A DNA stretch of 8,110 bases from a virus. Its lineage: Duplodnaviria; Heunggongvirae; Uroviricota; Caudoviricetes. A program made the translations under genes and the position numbers. This document shows, piece by piece, positions 1 to 8,033 of the stretch. The stretch lies in IMG/VR virus record IMGVR_UViG_2740892369_000015; one strand, written 5' to 3'. Position 1 is the stretch's first letter. Each line of letters starts with the position of its first letter. A model generated the notes under the pieces. It was given only the letters and a program-made list of their open reading frames with translations, had not been told where the DNA came from and ran no database searches.

Positions 1-136
1 AACCGAAAGTCAGTGCTGGCTGTTTTTTTCCTTAATAAGGCATCTGTAACTGAAACAATCCGCATATTGATAATATATTGACAGGCATCATTGCTGTCTG
101 TGAAAAATAAGTCTCTACAAACATATAAGGCCTTTT

Positions 137-177
137 AGCCAGCGTCTTCTTTTTCAGGTCAGTCGCTGGCTTTTTTT
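137..177 (+). terminator. Candidate plus-strand intrinsic terminator (8-bp stem, long loop, T7 run)
   Basis: AGCCAGCG (137-144) pairs with CGCTGGCT (164-171), followed directly by TTTTTTT (171-177). The 19-nt loop is long for a canonical terminator. A similar CTGGCTG+T7 motif at 17-30 looks like the 3' half of a second such hairpin cut by the window edge. Confidence 0.3.
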
Positions 178-178
178 A

Positions 179-2044
179 TTATGCTGCCGGTGCATTTATC
201 TCCAGCATCAGACTTTCTATCTCAACGCCATACGCTGCATTTTTTGTAACATCCGTCAGCGTCAGCGCATTCAGTCCCAGTGTCAGACTGTCTTTTATAA
301 CCTGGAATGCCGGGCCAGCCACTCCATTCAGTTTCGGAGTAACCGTGGCACTGCCGGCGGTGAACACCAGCTCCAGCGTCTGCCAGTCGTTACCGTAATC
401 GCCGAACTCCCCCAGCTTCGTGTTTCCGGCTTTCCTGTGATGCATCAGATTCACTCTGCCGTCAGTGGTCTGAGTGAAGTACGACATCAGGAACGGATTA
501 CCGGTACCCGTCATCGCCACACCATCAGGAACGGGAGCATCCGTATACAGATAAATCCCCAGCCCGAACTGATTGTTGGTCAGCGCGCCTGACAGGCGGA
601 ACTTACAGGTCAGTCTGCCGCCCTGTGTCAGCAGGGTAATTGCGTCATCCACCGGATGCGTCAGGGACCAGGTTTTATTGCTCTGCTTGGCGATCTTAAA
701 TACACCACCCGACAACTGAATTCCGCCGTCCTTAATGGTCCAGCCCTGCGCAGCAGCCTCTCCGGCTGTCGGCAGCAGGGAGATTGTGCGAACGGACGTA
801 TCTGCAGACGGACCCGATGGCGTGTCGCCGCCGGGCGAGGGTTTGATTTCCGGTGCCTTACCACTGATGAAAGCTGAGGTGCGCCCGGCTGCGTTCAGAA
901 TAGCGGTTGCCATACGATCCGGAATAATGCTCCTGCGCGCCCATGAACTGAAATGTGTCGGGCGGTTTGATGATACCTGGTTTCCATTCGTTCTCGATGC
1001 CGCACCGTAATATCCTGATGCCGGAATATCCGGATCTTCTGCCGGTGCGTTAGTGGCGGTATTGACGCCGTTACCGTCTGTCATGAAGGGCACAAAATAA
1101 ACGCCCTCACTCTCCCTGTTTTTATACCCGCCGTACACGGTGTCGTACTGGGTAGCGTATGTATTTTTCCAGTAATACGTCGTGTCACCACAAATCCACG
1201 GCACATTTACAGCACTGCCACCATGACACTGCGCGTTAAACACAGTGAGGTCAGCACGAAACTGCTTCAGCATGGCTGTAAACAGCGCAGGTTGCTGTGC
1301 GTAGGTGGCGGCGCTCATGTCAAACTCTCCCTGCATCCAGCACACCGCCAGCAACACATTTTTCGGGTTCTTCTGTAATGCAGCTTTAGTGCGCGCAATC
1401 AGGTCCTGATATAACGGTTTACCCACACCCCAGCGTGCCGAATCCTGGCTGGCCCCCGTGTCCGCACTGAATGTCCCCTCCGCGCCCTGGGTGAATGCCG
1501 AACCACCACGACAGCATGGTGCCAGCAGGATCCCCGCGTTATTCGGGATATACGGAAGCAGTTTTTTGGCAATATGTAAGCCCTGGCCGACACAGCCGTA
1601 CTGCCCTTTGCTCAGGTCTGCCTTCGGATGATTCAGCGTACTCATATCCTGCACATCATGCAGGCAGTGGTCGGCCGGAATAATATCGTTATATCTGCAG
1701 GCAGCCCCACCCGGCGTCACTGTACTGCGGCGCGCCAGCTGTTTAATGCGCGGATCCGGAGCATCGTATGAATCCGGCAGCGGAAGCCCTTCACCGTAAG
1801 CCATGGCATTGGACTGCCCGGCCAGTACGATGACGTAGTACCAATCCGGCTCAGTTGCACCACTGACCACCACATCACCTTCTGCTGTAATCGCCTGCAT
1901 CAGAGTATAAGGGGTTATGGCCACCGGACTACCAAACGGCTGCCAGCCCTCTTTCAGTTTATGTGTCAGCTTTTCCGCAAGATCTGACGGCGACGCAGCC
2001 CTGACAACATCATAGTGTTTAAATGCCATGGTTCTTTCCACCAT
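179..2044 (-). CDS. nanS: Prophage NanS-p-type sialate (9-O-acetyl-Neu5Ac) O-acetylesterase, SGNH-hydrolase family
   Basis: 621-codon ORF with the SGNH block-I motif GQSN (VLAGQSNAMAYGEG) and the size and position (immediately downstream of the stx-equivalent slot) typical of NanS-p esterases of EHEC prophages. The true start is probably the second Met (ATG 2027-2029, MAFKHYDVV), which is preceded by GGTGGAAAG; the first Met at 2044 has no Shine-Dalgarno. Confidence 0.8.
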   Translation of the reverse strand: MVERTMAFKHYDVVRAASPSDLAEKLTHKLKEGWQPFGSPVAITPYTLMQAITAEGDVVVSGATEPDWYYVIVLAGQSNAMAYGEGLPLPDSYDAPDPRIKQLARRSTVTPGGAACRYNDIIPADHCLHDVQDMSTLNHPKADLSKGQYGCVGQGLHIAKKLLPYIPNNAGILLAPCCRGGSAFTQGAEGTFSADTGASQDSARWGVGKPLYQDLIARTKAALQKNPKNVLLAVCWMQGEFDMSAATYAQQPALFTAMLKQFRADLTVFNAQCHGGSAVNVPWICGDTTYYWKNTYATQYDTVYGGYKNRESEGVYFVPFMTDGNGVNTATNAPAEDPDIPASGYYGAASRTNGNQVSSNRPTHFSSWARRSIIPDRMATAILNAAGRTSAFISGKAPEIKPSPGGDTPSGPSADTSVRTISLLPTAGEAAAQGWTIKDGGIQLSGGVFKIAKQSNKTWSLTHPVDDAITLLTQGGRLTCKFRLSGALTNNQFGLGIYLYTDAPVPDGVAMTGTGNPFLMSYFTQTTDGRVNLMHHRKAGNTKLGEFGDYGNDWQTLELVFTAGSATVTPKLNGVAGPAFQVIKDSLTLGLNALTLTDVTKNAAYGVEIESLMLEINAPAA

Positions 2045-2288
2045 CTGAAAAATAATTCTTTAAAATACCTGACATGTAATACAGAAAAAACACAAAACCA
2101 TACCTTAAATAAAAACCTGATTATCAAGCAGATATGCATGGATAAACTACAAGACGAGATATAAACCACCCTGTATTTAAATAAACAATAAACAACATCA
2201 GAAAAATAATTCTGCTCTATGGTTTAATTCAAAAATATCATTTATACTTTTCAGAACATTACCAGCAAGGCATAAACAAGGAAAGTAA

Positions 2289-2624
2289 ATGAAGTGGATT
2301 GTGATTGATACAGTTATCCAGCCATCATGCGGAATATCTTTTTCAGTCATATGGAGTAAAATAAAATTAATAATCTGGTATCAATCGGATGCTTTCTTAC
2401 CTCCTGAAAGTATATTTACACTGACTCACACAGGCATCATGCTCAATAACAAAGTGCTACCTGTAACCATTTACAACGTAGTACCATTCAATAAAACATT
2501 CTGGAATTTAATCAAAAACAGCCAGGAATGCCCTACAAATACAGATAACGTATTGAATGAATGCTTTAATAACCGTTGCACTCTGCAAATATGTCCTTAT
2601 GGACTAAAACAACAAAGTCCATAA
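2289..2624 (+). CDS. Hypothetical Cys-containing protein (111 aa) in an AT-rich islet, oriented against late transcription
   Basis: ATG preceded by AAGGAAAG at appropriate spacing. A 336-nt open frame is unlikely by chance in such AT-rich DNA. A perfect 12-bp inverted repeat (2594-2605 / 2616-2627, 10-nt loop) spans its stop codon and is followed by GTTTACTC. No homolog recognised by eye. Confidence 0.4.
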
Positions 2625-2642
2625 GGAGTTTACTCACATCTG

Positions 2643-2678
2643 ACAAAATCAATATAAACAGCCCCTCCGGAGAGGGGC
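2643..2678 (-). terminator. Rho-independent terminator for minus-strand transcripts
   Basis: On the minus strand GCCCCTC-TCCG-GAGGGGC (7-bp GC-rich stem, 4-nt loop; plus coordinates 2661-2678) is followed by TGTTTATATTGATTTTGT. The plus strand has no T-tract after the hairpin. Confidence 0.5.
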
Positions 2679-3071
2679 TGGAGAGTGGCGCTATGTGCCA
2701 TTGCATGGTGCCGGGTGCCTCCCGGTGAATTCAGTACCAGCACCTGAATCCGCGATTATCCCATATACCTACTCGCTGATTGCCCCTCCGCACAGGGGGA
2801 TTCACCATGCCAGTTTCTTTTAACAAACTCCCCGCAAACCAGACAACAGTCAACCGCCTGAATTGTGAAGTATTTAAAAATTTCTCCCGCTAACTGATAC
2901 CCGGCTAACAGTCTGGCGTTTTCTTTTTCAGCAACGGGAAAGCAACAACCACCACACCCGCCACCAGTACACAGTCAGCCAGCACTGACATTATCCGGCT
3001 GCTGCAATGCCATTCACAAAAACAGTAAGCAATCACTTTTTACCGTAACAGGTGATAATCCAGATATGTAT

Positions 3072-3398
3072 CTACCCCAGATGAGTAATCCGAAGTTCAT
3101 CCATACCACAGGTCCTGGCTATTCTGTTGTACTCCTGAACAAGAGCAAATAATTCTGAATTAGCAACCATGAACTCATCGCAAACCCTCTGTATAGCATC
3201 ACTATTCAGAAGAATAACGTCTCTTCCCGAAAGACGATCAGGAGTACAGAACAAAACTGTCAAACGGCTGAAGGCCTTTGCTCGTGCTGCATTGACTATA
3301 TCAATACGCTGCCTAAGGATGAAACACCCCGACGCCTCATCAATATTCACTCTACCCACACCATATGAATGATAAATATTTAATACTGAAAAAACCAT
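3072..3398 (-). CDS. Hypothetical protein (108 aa from ATG 3398; the ORF track extends it to a TTG at 3425) in the stx-equivalent cargo position
   Basis: Open frame co-oriented with the late operon, with protein-like composition. There is no strong Shine-Dalgarno. A weak sigma70-like promoter can be drawn upstream on the minus strand (TTGTCA at 3453-3448, 17-nt spacer, AAGTAT at 3430-3425). Not recognisably similar to Stx A or B subunits. Confidence 0.35.
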   Translation of the reverse strand: MVFSVLNIYHSYGVGRVNIDEASGCFILRQRIDIVNAARAKAFSRLTVLFCTPDRLSGRDVILLNSDAIQRVCDEFMVANSELFALVQEYNRIARTCGMDELRITHLG

Positions 3399-3535
3399 TA
3401 GACCGTATAACAAACACTCAATCAATACTTAACAGAACTTTTATTTTTGACAAACATATAATATTTTCAACAATATCCTGAGCCAGGTATATTCCAGTAT
3501 AAGGCTCTGCCGGAAGAAATCTGGAAGAATGAATA

Positions 3536-3612
3536 TGGCGCGTTGTACTGGATTCGAACCAGTGACCGATTGCTTAGAAGGCAATTGCTCTGTCCGGCTG
3601 AGCTAACAACGC
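3536..3612 (-). tRNA. tRNA-Arg (anticodon UCU)
   Basis: Reverse complement is GCGTTGTTAGCTCAGCCGGACAGAGCAATTGCCTTCTAAGCAATCGGTCACTGGTTCGAATCCAGTACAACGCGCCA. It has a 7-bp acceptor stem, D-arm GCTC/GAGC, anticodon stem ATTGC/GCAAT with loop CTTCTAA, T-arm ACTGG-TTCGAAT-CCAGT and an encoded CCA; 77 nt. Confidence 0.85.
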
Positions 3613-3709: not shown

Positions 3710-3785
3710 TGGTGGCCCTTGCTGGATTTGAACCAGCGACCTGGCGATTATGAGTCGCTCGCTCTCACCACTGAGCTAAAGGGCC
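3710..3785 (-). tRNA. tRNA with CAU anticodon (Ile2-lysidine type or Met; ileX/ileZ-like)
   Basis: Reverse complement is GGCCCTTTAGCTCAGTGGTGAGAGCGAGCGACTCATAATCGCCAGGTCGCTGGTTCAAATCCAGCAAGGGCCACCA. Acceptor GGCCCTT/AAGGGCC, anticodon loop CTCATAA, T-loop TTCAAAT, encoded CCA. It closely resembles E. coli ileX as recalled from memory. Confidence 0.85.
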
Positions 3786-5463: not shown

Positions 5464-6018
5464 TCAAGACATTTTTTGAGCAAACGATTCTCGCATAGGG
5501 ATGTATAGCGCATATTCAGCAACAGCCAACCAATTAGCAATTCGCTTTTCGCATGTACTAAAACACCATTCCGGGTGCACCTCATTCAACAATTCAGCCA
5601 TTTTGCGTTTACTCATCCCCCGCCCTTCGTACCTTTGCCGCAGGATATCAATCAATCCAGGATAACGTGCAAGCGCTTTACTTATCACCCCATCAATGCG
5701 TAACGCCTCTGCATCAGTACAGTGAGACAACCAGCTCTTCTGTCTGCCAGCGATCATCTCTCGCAAGAATGCTTCCAGCTCTGGTTTATCAATCCCTGAC
5801 TCCCTGATTCTACGCAGGGCTTCATTGATTGCGGTTTTTGTCAGTTTTTTGGATGCCAGCAACTGATTGAACATATTTCCTGGTTTGCCACCACCTATAT
5901 ACGACCAACGCCCCCACATCCGTAATTTCCCCTGGATCCAGACGGCTTCCAGCGTTTTTAGACGTAAATGCTCGCCGCTTTTGCCTGTAATTTCCGGGTA
6001 TATCATATTTACGATCAC
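5464..6018 (-). CDS. Putative late-gene antiterminator (Q-like), assigned mainly by synteny
   Basis: 180-184 aa ORF directly after rusA and directly before a tR'-like terminator and the tRNA cluster, the canonical slot of Q in lambdoid phages. The GTG start at 6018 overlaps the rusA stop; an ATG 12 nt downstream (6004-6006) is an alternative. No lambda-Q zinc-finger signature is seen, so the family is uncertain. Confidence 0.5.
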   Translation of the reverse strand: MIVNMIYPEITGKSGEHLRLKTLEAVWIQGKLRMWGRWSYIGGGKPGNMFNQLLASKKLTKTAINEALRRIRESGIDKPELEAFLREMIAGRQKSWLSHCTDAEALRIDGVISKALARYPGLIDILRQRYEGRGMSKRKMAELLNEVHPEWCFSTCEKRIANWLAVAEYALYIPMRESFAQKMS

Positions 6019-7877: not shown

Positions 7878-8033
7878 TTACTCCTCAGGTTCGTAAGCTG
7901 TGAAGACAGCGACCTCCGTCTGGCCGGTTCGGATTCGTACCTCGCAGAGGTCTTTCCTCGTTACCAGTGCCGTCACTATGACGGTTAAACAGATGACGAT
8001 CAGGGCGATTAACATCGCCTTTTGCTGCTTCAT
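7878..8033 (-). CDS. hokD: Hok-family type I toxin, HokD/RelF-like (51 aa)
   Basis: Translation MKQQKAMLIALIVICLTVIVTALVTRKDLCEVRIRTGQTEVAVFTAYEPEE has the Hok/Gef transmembrane and LTRK..LCE.R....EVA.F.AYE signature. ATG at 8031-8033 is preceded by AAGGAG with a 9-nt spacer. The ORF-track extension to GTG 8072 is probably not used. Confidence 0.9.
   Translation of the reverse strand: MKQQKAMLIALIVICLTVIVTALVTRKDLCEVRIRTGQTEVAVFTAYEPEE

Follow-up and report, generated by a model that had tools for sequence, protein, structure and literature searches.

A probable STnc100-family small RNA gene, of the EcOnc05 allele, in the late region of a lambdoid prophage

The minus-strand segment from position 2810, perhaps from further upstream, to ~2652 of the window (the whole stretch of 8,110 nucleotides of prophage DNA that was analysed) is very probably a small RNA gene of the STnc100 family, and the same allele as EcOnc05 in prophage Sp4 of O157:H7 strain Sakai. 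The feature is thus a previously described, curated and very common prophage sRNA, ordinary and not new. A first-pass annotation had proposed a terminator-proximal, Hfq-type prophage sRNA here, and that proposal stands, since the segment contains a full-length STnc100 member that matches the Hfq-crosslinked and Northern-detected EcOnc05. STnc100 is a Gammaproteobacterial sRNA whose name was first given in Salmonella.

An Rfam scan of the whole window returned a single non-tRNA match at gathering threshold:

2650..2839, minus strand, STnc100 match (Rfam RF02076, model positions 1-206, the full model; 132.4 bits, E 8.8e-30)

To count as RF02076 a sequence must reach the gathering score of 47 bits across the full model, which this match exceeds. 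A permissive scan of positions 2200-3100 (E up to 10) gave nothing further except noise. The locus identical to the window (L001) gives the same match, the Sakai Sp4 locus (L243) scores 138 bits, and STnc100 members of Klebsiella, Enterobacter, Phytobacter and Shigella also exceed the gathering score. The layout and location are likewise those of RF02076: a closing helix surrounds a multi-hairpin junction and is followed by a GC-rich terminator hairpin, and the element sits within the late/moron region of a lambdoid prophage, with Q on one side and the esterase/lysis genes on the other. The real 5′ end may be downstream of the first 29 model positions. As many as 1,358 complete E. coli records contain the 301-nt region 2600-2900 at no less than 99% identity, and the whole window is ~100% identical over 98% of its length to O26:H11-type EHEC chromosomes such as that of 97-3250.

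From ~2880 to 2659 the window is near-identical to the Sakai Sp4 EcOnc05 locus (alignment A3); the RNA body is identical in the two, and the sequences diverge directly after the terminator stem. EcOnc05 was found by Hfq crosslinking and Northern blotting (Tree et al. 2014; PMC4104026), with an Hfq-CRAC peak at 1179806-1179914(+) in five of five data sets; on Northern blots its band was ~222 nt (PMC4104026 Table S2). Mapped onto the window this peak falls at ~2778-2670, and the EcOnc05 Northern probe of Tree et al. corresponds to window 2747-2781(+) with no mismatches. Both the Hfq co-purification and the Northern species are published for the Sakai copy only and not for the window locus (PMC4104026). 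The probe targets the core common to the paralogues, so even the Sakai band is not locus-specific. In at least eight Sakai prophages the Hfq-crosslinked EcOnc RNAs occur as convergent pairs at a moron site that follows pR′ (PMC4104026; review PMC7873438).

The family is multi-copy in EHEC and EPEC, and in Stx phages it adjoins stx. Eleven STnc100 copies were annotated with RNA-seq reads in EDL933, one of them, STnc100_4, Northern-confirmed (PMC5331693), and RpoD ChIP-exo signal has been reported at the Salmonella LT2 copies (PMC10794520). STnc100 was detected in STEC vesicles with RT-qPCR primers (PMC12370729) that match the window exactly, and a 2025 machine-learning study tied SNPs in the paralogue EcOnc27/STnc100 to HUS outcome. 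The value of the present result is mainly one of bookkeeping. RefSeq has no ncRNA feature at this place and instead shows a spurious pseudo 'hypothetical protein' on the opposite (plus) strand, at window 2695-2820; with the locus assigned to the EcOnc05 allele, a fitting probe and 3′ segment can be chosen for experiments.

The genes that matter most for placing the sRNA gene are as follows.

5464-6018, Q-like antiterminator, ~2.6 kb upstream of the sRNA gene
2905..3036, minus strand, DUF3927 small ORF, the upstream neighbour (PF13064, E 8e-26)
2289..2624, plus strand, iraM-like convergent gene (RefSeq: anti-adapter protein IraM)
179..2044, minus strand, DUF1737-SASA sialate O-acetylesterase (nanS-p type), the downstream neighbour

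In minus-strand order the window runs from DUF968 and RusA through the DUF1133/Q-like antiterminator, a small ORF, an N6/N4 DNA methylase, a tRNA with anticodon CAT (annotated as Ile, tRNA-Ile2, in RefSeq) and tRNA-Arg(UCU) to DUF3927, the sRNA gene, the iraM-like gene on the opposite strand and the DUF1737-SASA gene; beyond the window, after the esterase, lie holin, lysozyme and Rz. Across 143 instances of the module, DUF3927 precedes it on the same strand in 68, a tRNA cluster does so in 29 and another feature in 43, and in Stx phages the upstream neighbour is stx1B or stx2B; a SASA esterase lies downstream in 109 of the 143. Between the tRNA and the module of Sakai Sp4 there is a hairpin that resembles a terminator and has a T8 run. 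A self-standing gene module is favoured over the 3′UTR of any one gene because the upstream neighbour varies, because homology starts at a conserved box (TCACAATT, below) and because of the Sp4 hairpin. The long 3′UTR that the first-pass annotation had offered as an alternative is therefore not favoured: the module is found behind DUF3927, the tRNA-Arg cluster, stx1B and stx2B, and always begins ~58 nt before the core.

At most loci a second hairpin directly follows the terminator and is the terminator of a convergent AsxR/AgvB-type RNA; in Stx2 phage II, for example, AsxR and STnc100 abut tail to tail. In the window the iraM-like gene occupies the slot of this convergent anti-sRNA, an arrangement with an iraM-like gene on the opposite strand that is found in 34 of the 143 instances (the window and 33 others), and the sequence change right after the terminator stem leaves a less regular U-tract. 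No plus-strand terminator with a U-tract was found between the iraM-like gene and the sRNA gene, so antisense read-through from iraM is conceivable. It is a speculative and quite improbable extension of this that iraM transcripts running antisense through the EcOnc05-type gene link the sRNA to the RpoS-stabilising anti-adaptor, either through interference between the two transcription units or through cleavage by RNase III. As a broader and equally speculative reading, the conserved junction might be a functional domain that binds a protein or RNA polymerase, rather than a passive scaffold.

The body of the RNA is predicted to form a five-way junction, in which P1 closes P2 to P5. The helices below are those of the minimum free energy (MFE) fold.

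2703..2810, minus strand, five-way junction (MFE fold and homologue alignment)
2810-2803/2710-2703, minus strand, P1, closing helix
2798-2794/2787-2783, minus strand, P2
2776-2773/2755-2752, minus strand, P3
2751-2744/2734-2727, minus strand, P4
2725-2721/2715-2711, minus strand, P5

Several of these elements had been recognised at first pass. The CCGGG-AGGCA-CCCGG stem is present at 2725..2711(-) and is P5, and the stem placed at 2783-2799 corresponds to CCCCCUGUGCGGAGGGG, present at 2799..2783(-). A GGTG...CACC stem proposed around 2708-2745 is not part of the consensus; CACC at 2710-2707 pairs instead with GGUG at 2806-2803, in the 5′ arm of P1. The originally proposed interval, 2643-2800, thus covers a real segment but omits that arm, and the element extends at least to 2810 (to 2839 in the Rfam model). 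RNA folding had been named as one way to examine the segment, and the fold of 2812-2650(-) has an MFE of -69.2 kcal/mol (z = -2.5), with 1 of 200 shuffles as stable; its MFE structure coincides with the centroid and gives P1 to P5 plus the terminator. Judged by energy alone the complementary strand folds about equally well, so folding energy cannot set the strand.

Homologues were collected by a pattern scan of IMG/VR (120 prophage-type loci), together with a few enterobacterial genomes and reference loci, which gave 142 instances; these comprise 93 unique sequences, or 46 clusters when grouped at 93% identity. A scan of genome contigs with CATGGTGAATCC-N60-90-GGGAGGC over 596 Gb used too loose a pattern: it returned 120 loci, nearly all of them chance matches, with seven real enterobacterial loci and none from Salmonella. 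Covariation across homologous prophages, the other check named at first pass, bears the structure out, as compensatory changes keep P3 and P4 among 34 homologues. When the window MFE structure was projected on an alignment (A2) of 34 diverse cores, standard pairs occupied 90.2% of cells, against 37-48% when the 3′ partners were slid by one to three columns. Ten pairs have changes on both sides, and none of 500 shuffles reaches any of the observed measures. Double changes occur in seven of the eight P4 pairs (one position shows A-U, U-A and G-C) and in three of the four P3 pairs. P1, P2 and P5 are nearly invariant among the 34, which is partly ascertainment, as the search fixed CATGGTGAATCC and GGGAGGC; in lineage L163, P2 changes from CCCCU/AGGGG to CUUUC/GAAAG, which is compensatory but masked by an alignment gap. 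A conserved five-way junction is thus supported by covariation in P3 and P4. From the same alignment RNAalifold prefers a pairing of two invariant blocks, GGUGAAUCCC with GGGAGGCACC. P1, P2 and P5 cannot be separated from this GGUGAAUCCC/GGGAGGCACC pairing, as the homologue search itself required CATGGTGAATCC and GGGAGGC.

G-U pairs are found in P4 (in 26 of 34 sequences, the window included) and in P1, and on the other strand they would be C-A mismatches; because they fit the minus strand only, that is the functional strand. The strand assignment rests on these pairs, on the U-tail and on the Rfam model.

The 3′ end is set by an intrinsic terminator, and between it and the junction lies a segment that varies among copies.

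2681..2702, minus strand, variable 3′ segment and candidate seed (AAUGGCACAUAGCGCCACUCUC), between junction and terminator and mostly unpaired
2650..2680, minus strand, intrinsic terminator (terminator scan and fold)

A minus-strand terminator had been called in the first-pass annotation, and the terminator scan recovers it as the hairpin CAGCCCCUC-UCCG-GAGGGGCUG at 2680..2659 followed by UUUAUAUUG. The stem CAGCCCCUC/GAGGGGCUG (2680-2672/2667-2659) has 9 bp, seven of them GC pairs, with the loop UCCG, and the U-rich tail UUUAUAUUG (tail UUUAUAUU) includes an interrupted U-tract. A Rho-independent terminator with a U-rich 3′ tail is what characterises the Hfq-sRNA class, and both are present here although the U-tract is interrupted.

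The 3′ segment contains a small hairpin (2700-2697/2689-2686) and falls inside the mapped Sakai EcOnc05 Hfq-CRAC peak. In PasD of EPEC the published, experimentally inferred seed, UGUGAG, lies between junction and terminator, and by analogy of position 2702-2681 is a candidate target-pairing (seed) region, although its sequence is unrelated to that of the equivalent PasD stretch. The segment is swapped between copies, which carry 12 types of 3′ module. When upstream, middle and 3′ parts were clustered separately they gave 15, 14 and 12 types, respectively, in 34 combinations among 91 unique loci, and the middle type of the window is joined to five different 3′ modules; the terminator stem is the most uniform part of these modules. 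The likely working model is a promoter and scaffold that are conserved, joined to a seed/terminator cassette that can be exchanged. Such modularity suggests that target sets may be specific to individual alleles, and targets of PasD or sRNA103 should not be transferred to the window allele.

Upstream of the core, three elements are relevant to where transcription might begin.

2861..2868, minus strand, conserved TCACAATT box, the 5′ edge of the module common to copies with different upstream genes
2841..2853, minus strand, two overlapping -35-like hexamers (TTGACT, 2853-2848; TTGTCT, 2846-2841)
2817..2825, minus strand, extended -10-like element TGT-TAAAAG of the putative promoter, after an 18-nt spacer from TTGTCT

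Among 53 unique upstream sequences the TCACAATT box lies 57-59 nt from the G of GCATGG in 30, and TCACATTT replaces it at the same distance in two more; in the window the box is ~58 nt upstream of the putative 5′ end. The motif TAAAAR precedes the G of GCAUGG by 5-7 nt (once by 3 nt) in 42 of the 53, and in these same sequences a TTG-type hexamer is retained another 16-19 nt upstream, most often 18. TTGTCT of the window aligns with the TTGACT/TTGATT -35 of the PasD-type copies, and copies with a weak -35 (TTGTCT/TTGCCT) have the TG of an extended -10, which most copies with TTGACT/TTGATT lack. Conservation of the -10 and -35 elements gives good comparative support for a promoter here. A consensus promoter scan did not call the TTGTCT-TAAAAG promoter, and the putative -10, TAAAAG, lacks the conserved T at -7. 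A promoter using the perfect TTGACT (2853-2848) is not favoured, since 17 nt downstream of it stands GAGTTT, a hexamer whose equivalents show little conservation; CACAAT within the TCACAATT box was rejected as a -10 for want of a -35 partner.

The 5′ end of PasD2 has been estimated by RNA-seq at NC_011601:741157 (PMC8550237 Table S6), the G of GCAUGGUG, and G2810 of the window is the homologue of this start G. By that analogy our best inference is a 5′ end near G2810. An RNA from G2810 to the terminator is predicted to be ~160 nt long, ~60 nt shorter than the published ~222 nt band. In some copies the same core is joined to a PasD-like 3′ module of greater length, which would give ~205-210 nt counted from the same start, and it is plausible, if unproven, that the band is a cross-hybridising paralogue of this sort; transcription may also begin further upstream, or the RNA may be processed from a longer precursor.

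Taken together, these features would fit the following course of events. In lysogens the RNA would be made from its own sigma-70 promoter (TTGTCT, 18 nt, TGT-TAAAAG), starting near G2810 and stopping at the terminator after ~160 nt. Its structured 5′ domain may serve as a stable scaffold, while 2702-2681, the terminator and the U-tail would bind Hfq and base-pair with trans-encoded RNAs, as the similar layout of PasD1/PasD2 suggests. During lytic growth Q-modified RNA polymerase would presumably pass the terminator and go on to transcribe the esterase and lysis genes.

The position of the terminator also suits a reading in which the locus is a cis-acting late-operon element, the terminator insulating the esterase/lysis genes from moron-region transcription without Q and the RNA being a by-product. 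The site is constant, directly upstream of these genes, and SASA often begins within ~60-200 nt of the terminator (109/143); the stem is more uniform than the rest of the 3′ modules, and with a convergent AsxR-type terminator it forms a tail-to-tail double terminator. We consider this possible but unlikely: a terminator alone fails to explain the conserved, covarying 110-nt junction or the promoter-like elements, and family members such as PasD bind Hfq and form RIL-seq chimeras with many mRNAs. An insulator role may coexist with a trans-acting one. The imperfect -10 that the promoter scan did not call, and the published band that exceeds the length predicted from G2810, could instead mean that the RNA has no promoter of its own and is cut by RNase E or RNase P from a DUF3927 3′UTR, tRNA read-through or the pR′ transcript, with ~2810 as the processing site. 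DUF3927 or a tRNA does lie directly upstream on the same strand in 97 of the 143 instances, and the AU-rich UUAAAAGAAACU just 5′ of the stable helix might be a plausible RNase E context. The Sp4 hairpin with its T8 run between tRNA and module, the conserved -35 and extended -10 whose strengths compensate one another, the constant start of the module ~58 nt before the core behind varying upstream genes, and the RpoD ChIP-exo signal at the LT2 copies all argue against such an origin, which we regard as clearly unlikely.

The elaborateness of the five-way junction, unusual for an Hfq sRNA, raises the question of whether the multi-helix domain is a protein-binding or autonomous structured RNA (a CsrA sponge acting through GGA, or an element like put of HK022) for which base-pairing is secondary. 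There are five GGA motifs, several at loop-stem edges, and the mutual complementarity of the two invariant blocks suggests alternative conformers. Five GGA compare with about three expected from composition, however, which is no enrichment, and the GGA of P2 is GGC in several homologues; the CsrA-sponge reading from GGA counts was rejected on both grounds. A literature search gave no link of the family to CsrA or RNA polymerase, and Q already provides antitermination in these phages, so that a role of this kind seems very improbable. Coding capacity is the last reading to weigh. The first-pass annotation had reported no ORF; mechanical ORFs of 40-46 aa do in fact overlap the region on both strands, and the claim holds only loosely, although none of these ORFs has family support.

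2695-2823, plus strand, mechanical ORF
2731-2853, minus strand, mechanical ORF
2566-2706, minus strand, mechanical ORF

A small protein might be encoded by the RefSeq pseudo-CDS (2695-2820, plus strand) or from AUG 2706 on the minus strand, which has an SD-like GGGAGG 10 nt before it, and ribosome footprints are reported on some EDL933 STnc100 copies (PMC5331693). The idea is nonetheless scarcely credible. The plus-strand CDS is marked incomplete/pseudo in RefSeq, substitutions follow RNA pairing, and the G-U pairs fit a minus-strand RNA; coding from AUG 2706 was rejected, as the peptides it would give are entirely different from one type of 3′ module to another and continue across the terminator, in most cases without reaching a stop.

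Comparison with known prophage RNAs places the window copy more closely. The λ 6S RNA and StxS (pR′-tR′ leaders) are likewise prophage late-region RNAs that end at an intrinsic terminator through which Q-modified polymerase would read, but they start at pR′ directly downstream of Q; the window RNA is ~2.6 kb from Q, with the methylase and tRNAs between, and a leader of the 6S or StxS type was rejected for that reason. The anti-sRNAs AsxR and AgvB (RF02703 and RF02702) occupy the same lambdoid prophage moron locus as convergent partners of STnc100-type genes, but these RNAs of 51-60 nt are encoded on the opposite strand and bear no sequence relationship to the window RNA. Neither model matched in 2200-3100 at E up to 10, while the positive control, AsxR beside STnc100 in Stx2 phage II, was detected, and an AsxR/AgvB RNA on the plus strand was rejected.

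PasD1 and PasD2 of EPEC E2348/69 (Pearl Mizrahi 2021), which are structural relatives of STnc100 (2026 preprint, Zhu, Shabalina, Storz), have a promoter region, GCAUGGUGAAUCC start and junction core homologous to those of the window, the same DUF3927 - sRNA - esterase synteny, and the same arrangement, in which a structured 5′ domain is followed by a 3′ seed and then the terminator. PasD differs in falling below the Rfam STnc100 gathering score, in having no P5 hairpin, and in its 3′ half (seed UGUGAG; terminator GGCUGCGCA/UGCGCAGCC plus U8), which is not homologous to that of the window. UGUGAG is absent from the window RNA body, its sole occurrence being at 2638-2633, downstream of the terminator. 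Identity with PasD was rejected, as only the promoter and 5′ core align (A1) and the seed CCUUGUGAG and terminator are unmatched.

EcOnc27/sRNA103 (Sp5/933W), which lies downstream of stx2B and overlaps an STnc100 annotation (PMC12711010), belongs to the same family as the window RNA, has the same position relative to the esterase and is Hfq-bound. It is paired with a convergent AsxR that is absent in the window, and its reported effects (fimZ and espA up on overexpression) are not transferable, because its P3 region and 3′ module differ from those of the window copy. The EcOnc05 module of Sakai Sp4 follows tRNA-Arg (argO) and is itself followed by the convergent hairpin and the EcOnc08/21 RNAs, whereas in the window DUF3927 lies upstream and the convergent iraM-like gene downstream, and the U-tract differs (UGUUUAUAUU against UUUCUUAUGG). 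Relative to RF02076 as a whole, the P3 region is shorter in the window copy (190 nt against the 206-nt model), and the 3′ single-stranded module of this copy is unlike that of the Stx2-phage type, which scores 208 bits; the window copy shares with the family the same helices, the same type of terminator and the same prophage late-region context.

The RefSeq genomes carry no ncRNA feature at the position of the STnc100-family sRNA gene; a pseudo-CDS is annotated on the opposite strand instead, and this "hypothetical protein" is probably an annotation artefact. It is listed here with the other features considered, in window coordinates except for the last.

2289-2624 (+), iraM-like anti-adaptor gene, named IraM by RefSeq
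about 2593-2628, hairpin at the iraM-like gene
2695-2820 (+), "hypothetical protein", incomplete or pseudo, in RefSeq genomes
2714-2723 (-), conserved block GGGAGGCACC
2798-2807 (-), conserved block GGUGAAUCCC
2861-2868 (-), conserved TCACAATT box, ~58 nt upstream of the core
3072-3425 (-), 117-aa ORF between tRNA-Arg and DUF3927
3536-3612 (-), tRNA-Arg(UCU), downstream of the Q-like gene
3710-3785 (-), CAT-anticodon tRNA, likewise downstream of the Q-like gene
about 7878-8033 (-), hokD-type toxin ORF at the window edge
L243 (Sakai prophage Sp4) 3184-3212, terminator-like hairpin with a T8 run, immediately downstream of the tRNA-Arg gene argO, with the STnc100 module following closely

The GGUGAAUCCC and GGGAGGCACC blocks, the two most conserved, are mutually complementary, and RNAalifold favours a helix between them over P1/P2/P5, a preference to be read with the fact that both blocks were fixed by the homologue search pattern; the predicted helix may represent an alternative conformer. 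Two tandem STnc100-type genes, ~470 bp apart and usually of different module types, are found at loci L081, L128, L136, L137, L145, L156, L187 and L195 in other prophages.

The TCACAATT box marks where the module common to the copies begins on its 5' side, and a related form of the box (TCACATAT) is present in the Klebsiella copy too. It could be an activator or UP-like site or a portion of a longer transcript. Regarding transcription from upstream, the position of the Sakai Sp4 hairpin and T8 run between argO and STnc100 implies that tRNA-operon transcripts there mostly end before reaching the sRNA gene. The argN tRNA of Sakai Sp4 and L001 (the locus with the identical STnc100 match) is absent from the window, whose CAT-anticodon tRNA is Met according to ARAGORN but Ile (ileZ type) according to RefSeq. 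The 117-aa ORF has no Pfam match or RefSeq annotation and is probably not a gene. Rfam detects a sok antitoxin RNA in L001, and the sok partner of the hokD-type ORF would be truncated by the window end.

On the other side, the iraM-like gene converges on the sRNA terminator. Its protein matches no Pfam family, the RefSeq name notwithstanding. Since no plus-strand U-tract terminator lies between this gene and the sRNA gene in the window, read-through antisense to the latter is possible. The iraM-like gene occupies the slot that in other prophages holds a convergent anti-sRNA of the AsxR/AgvB type.
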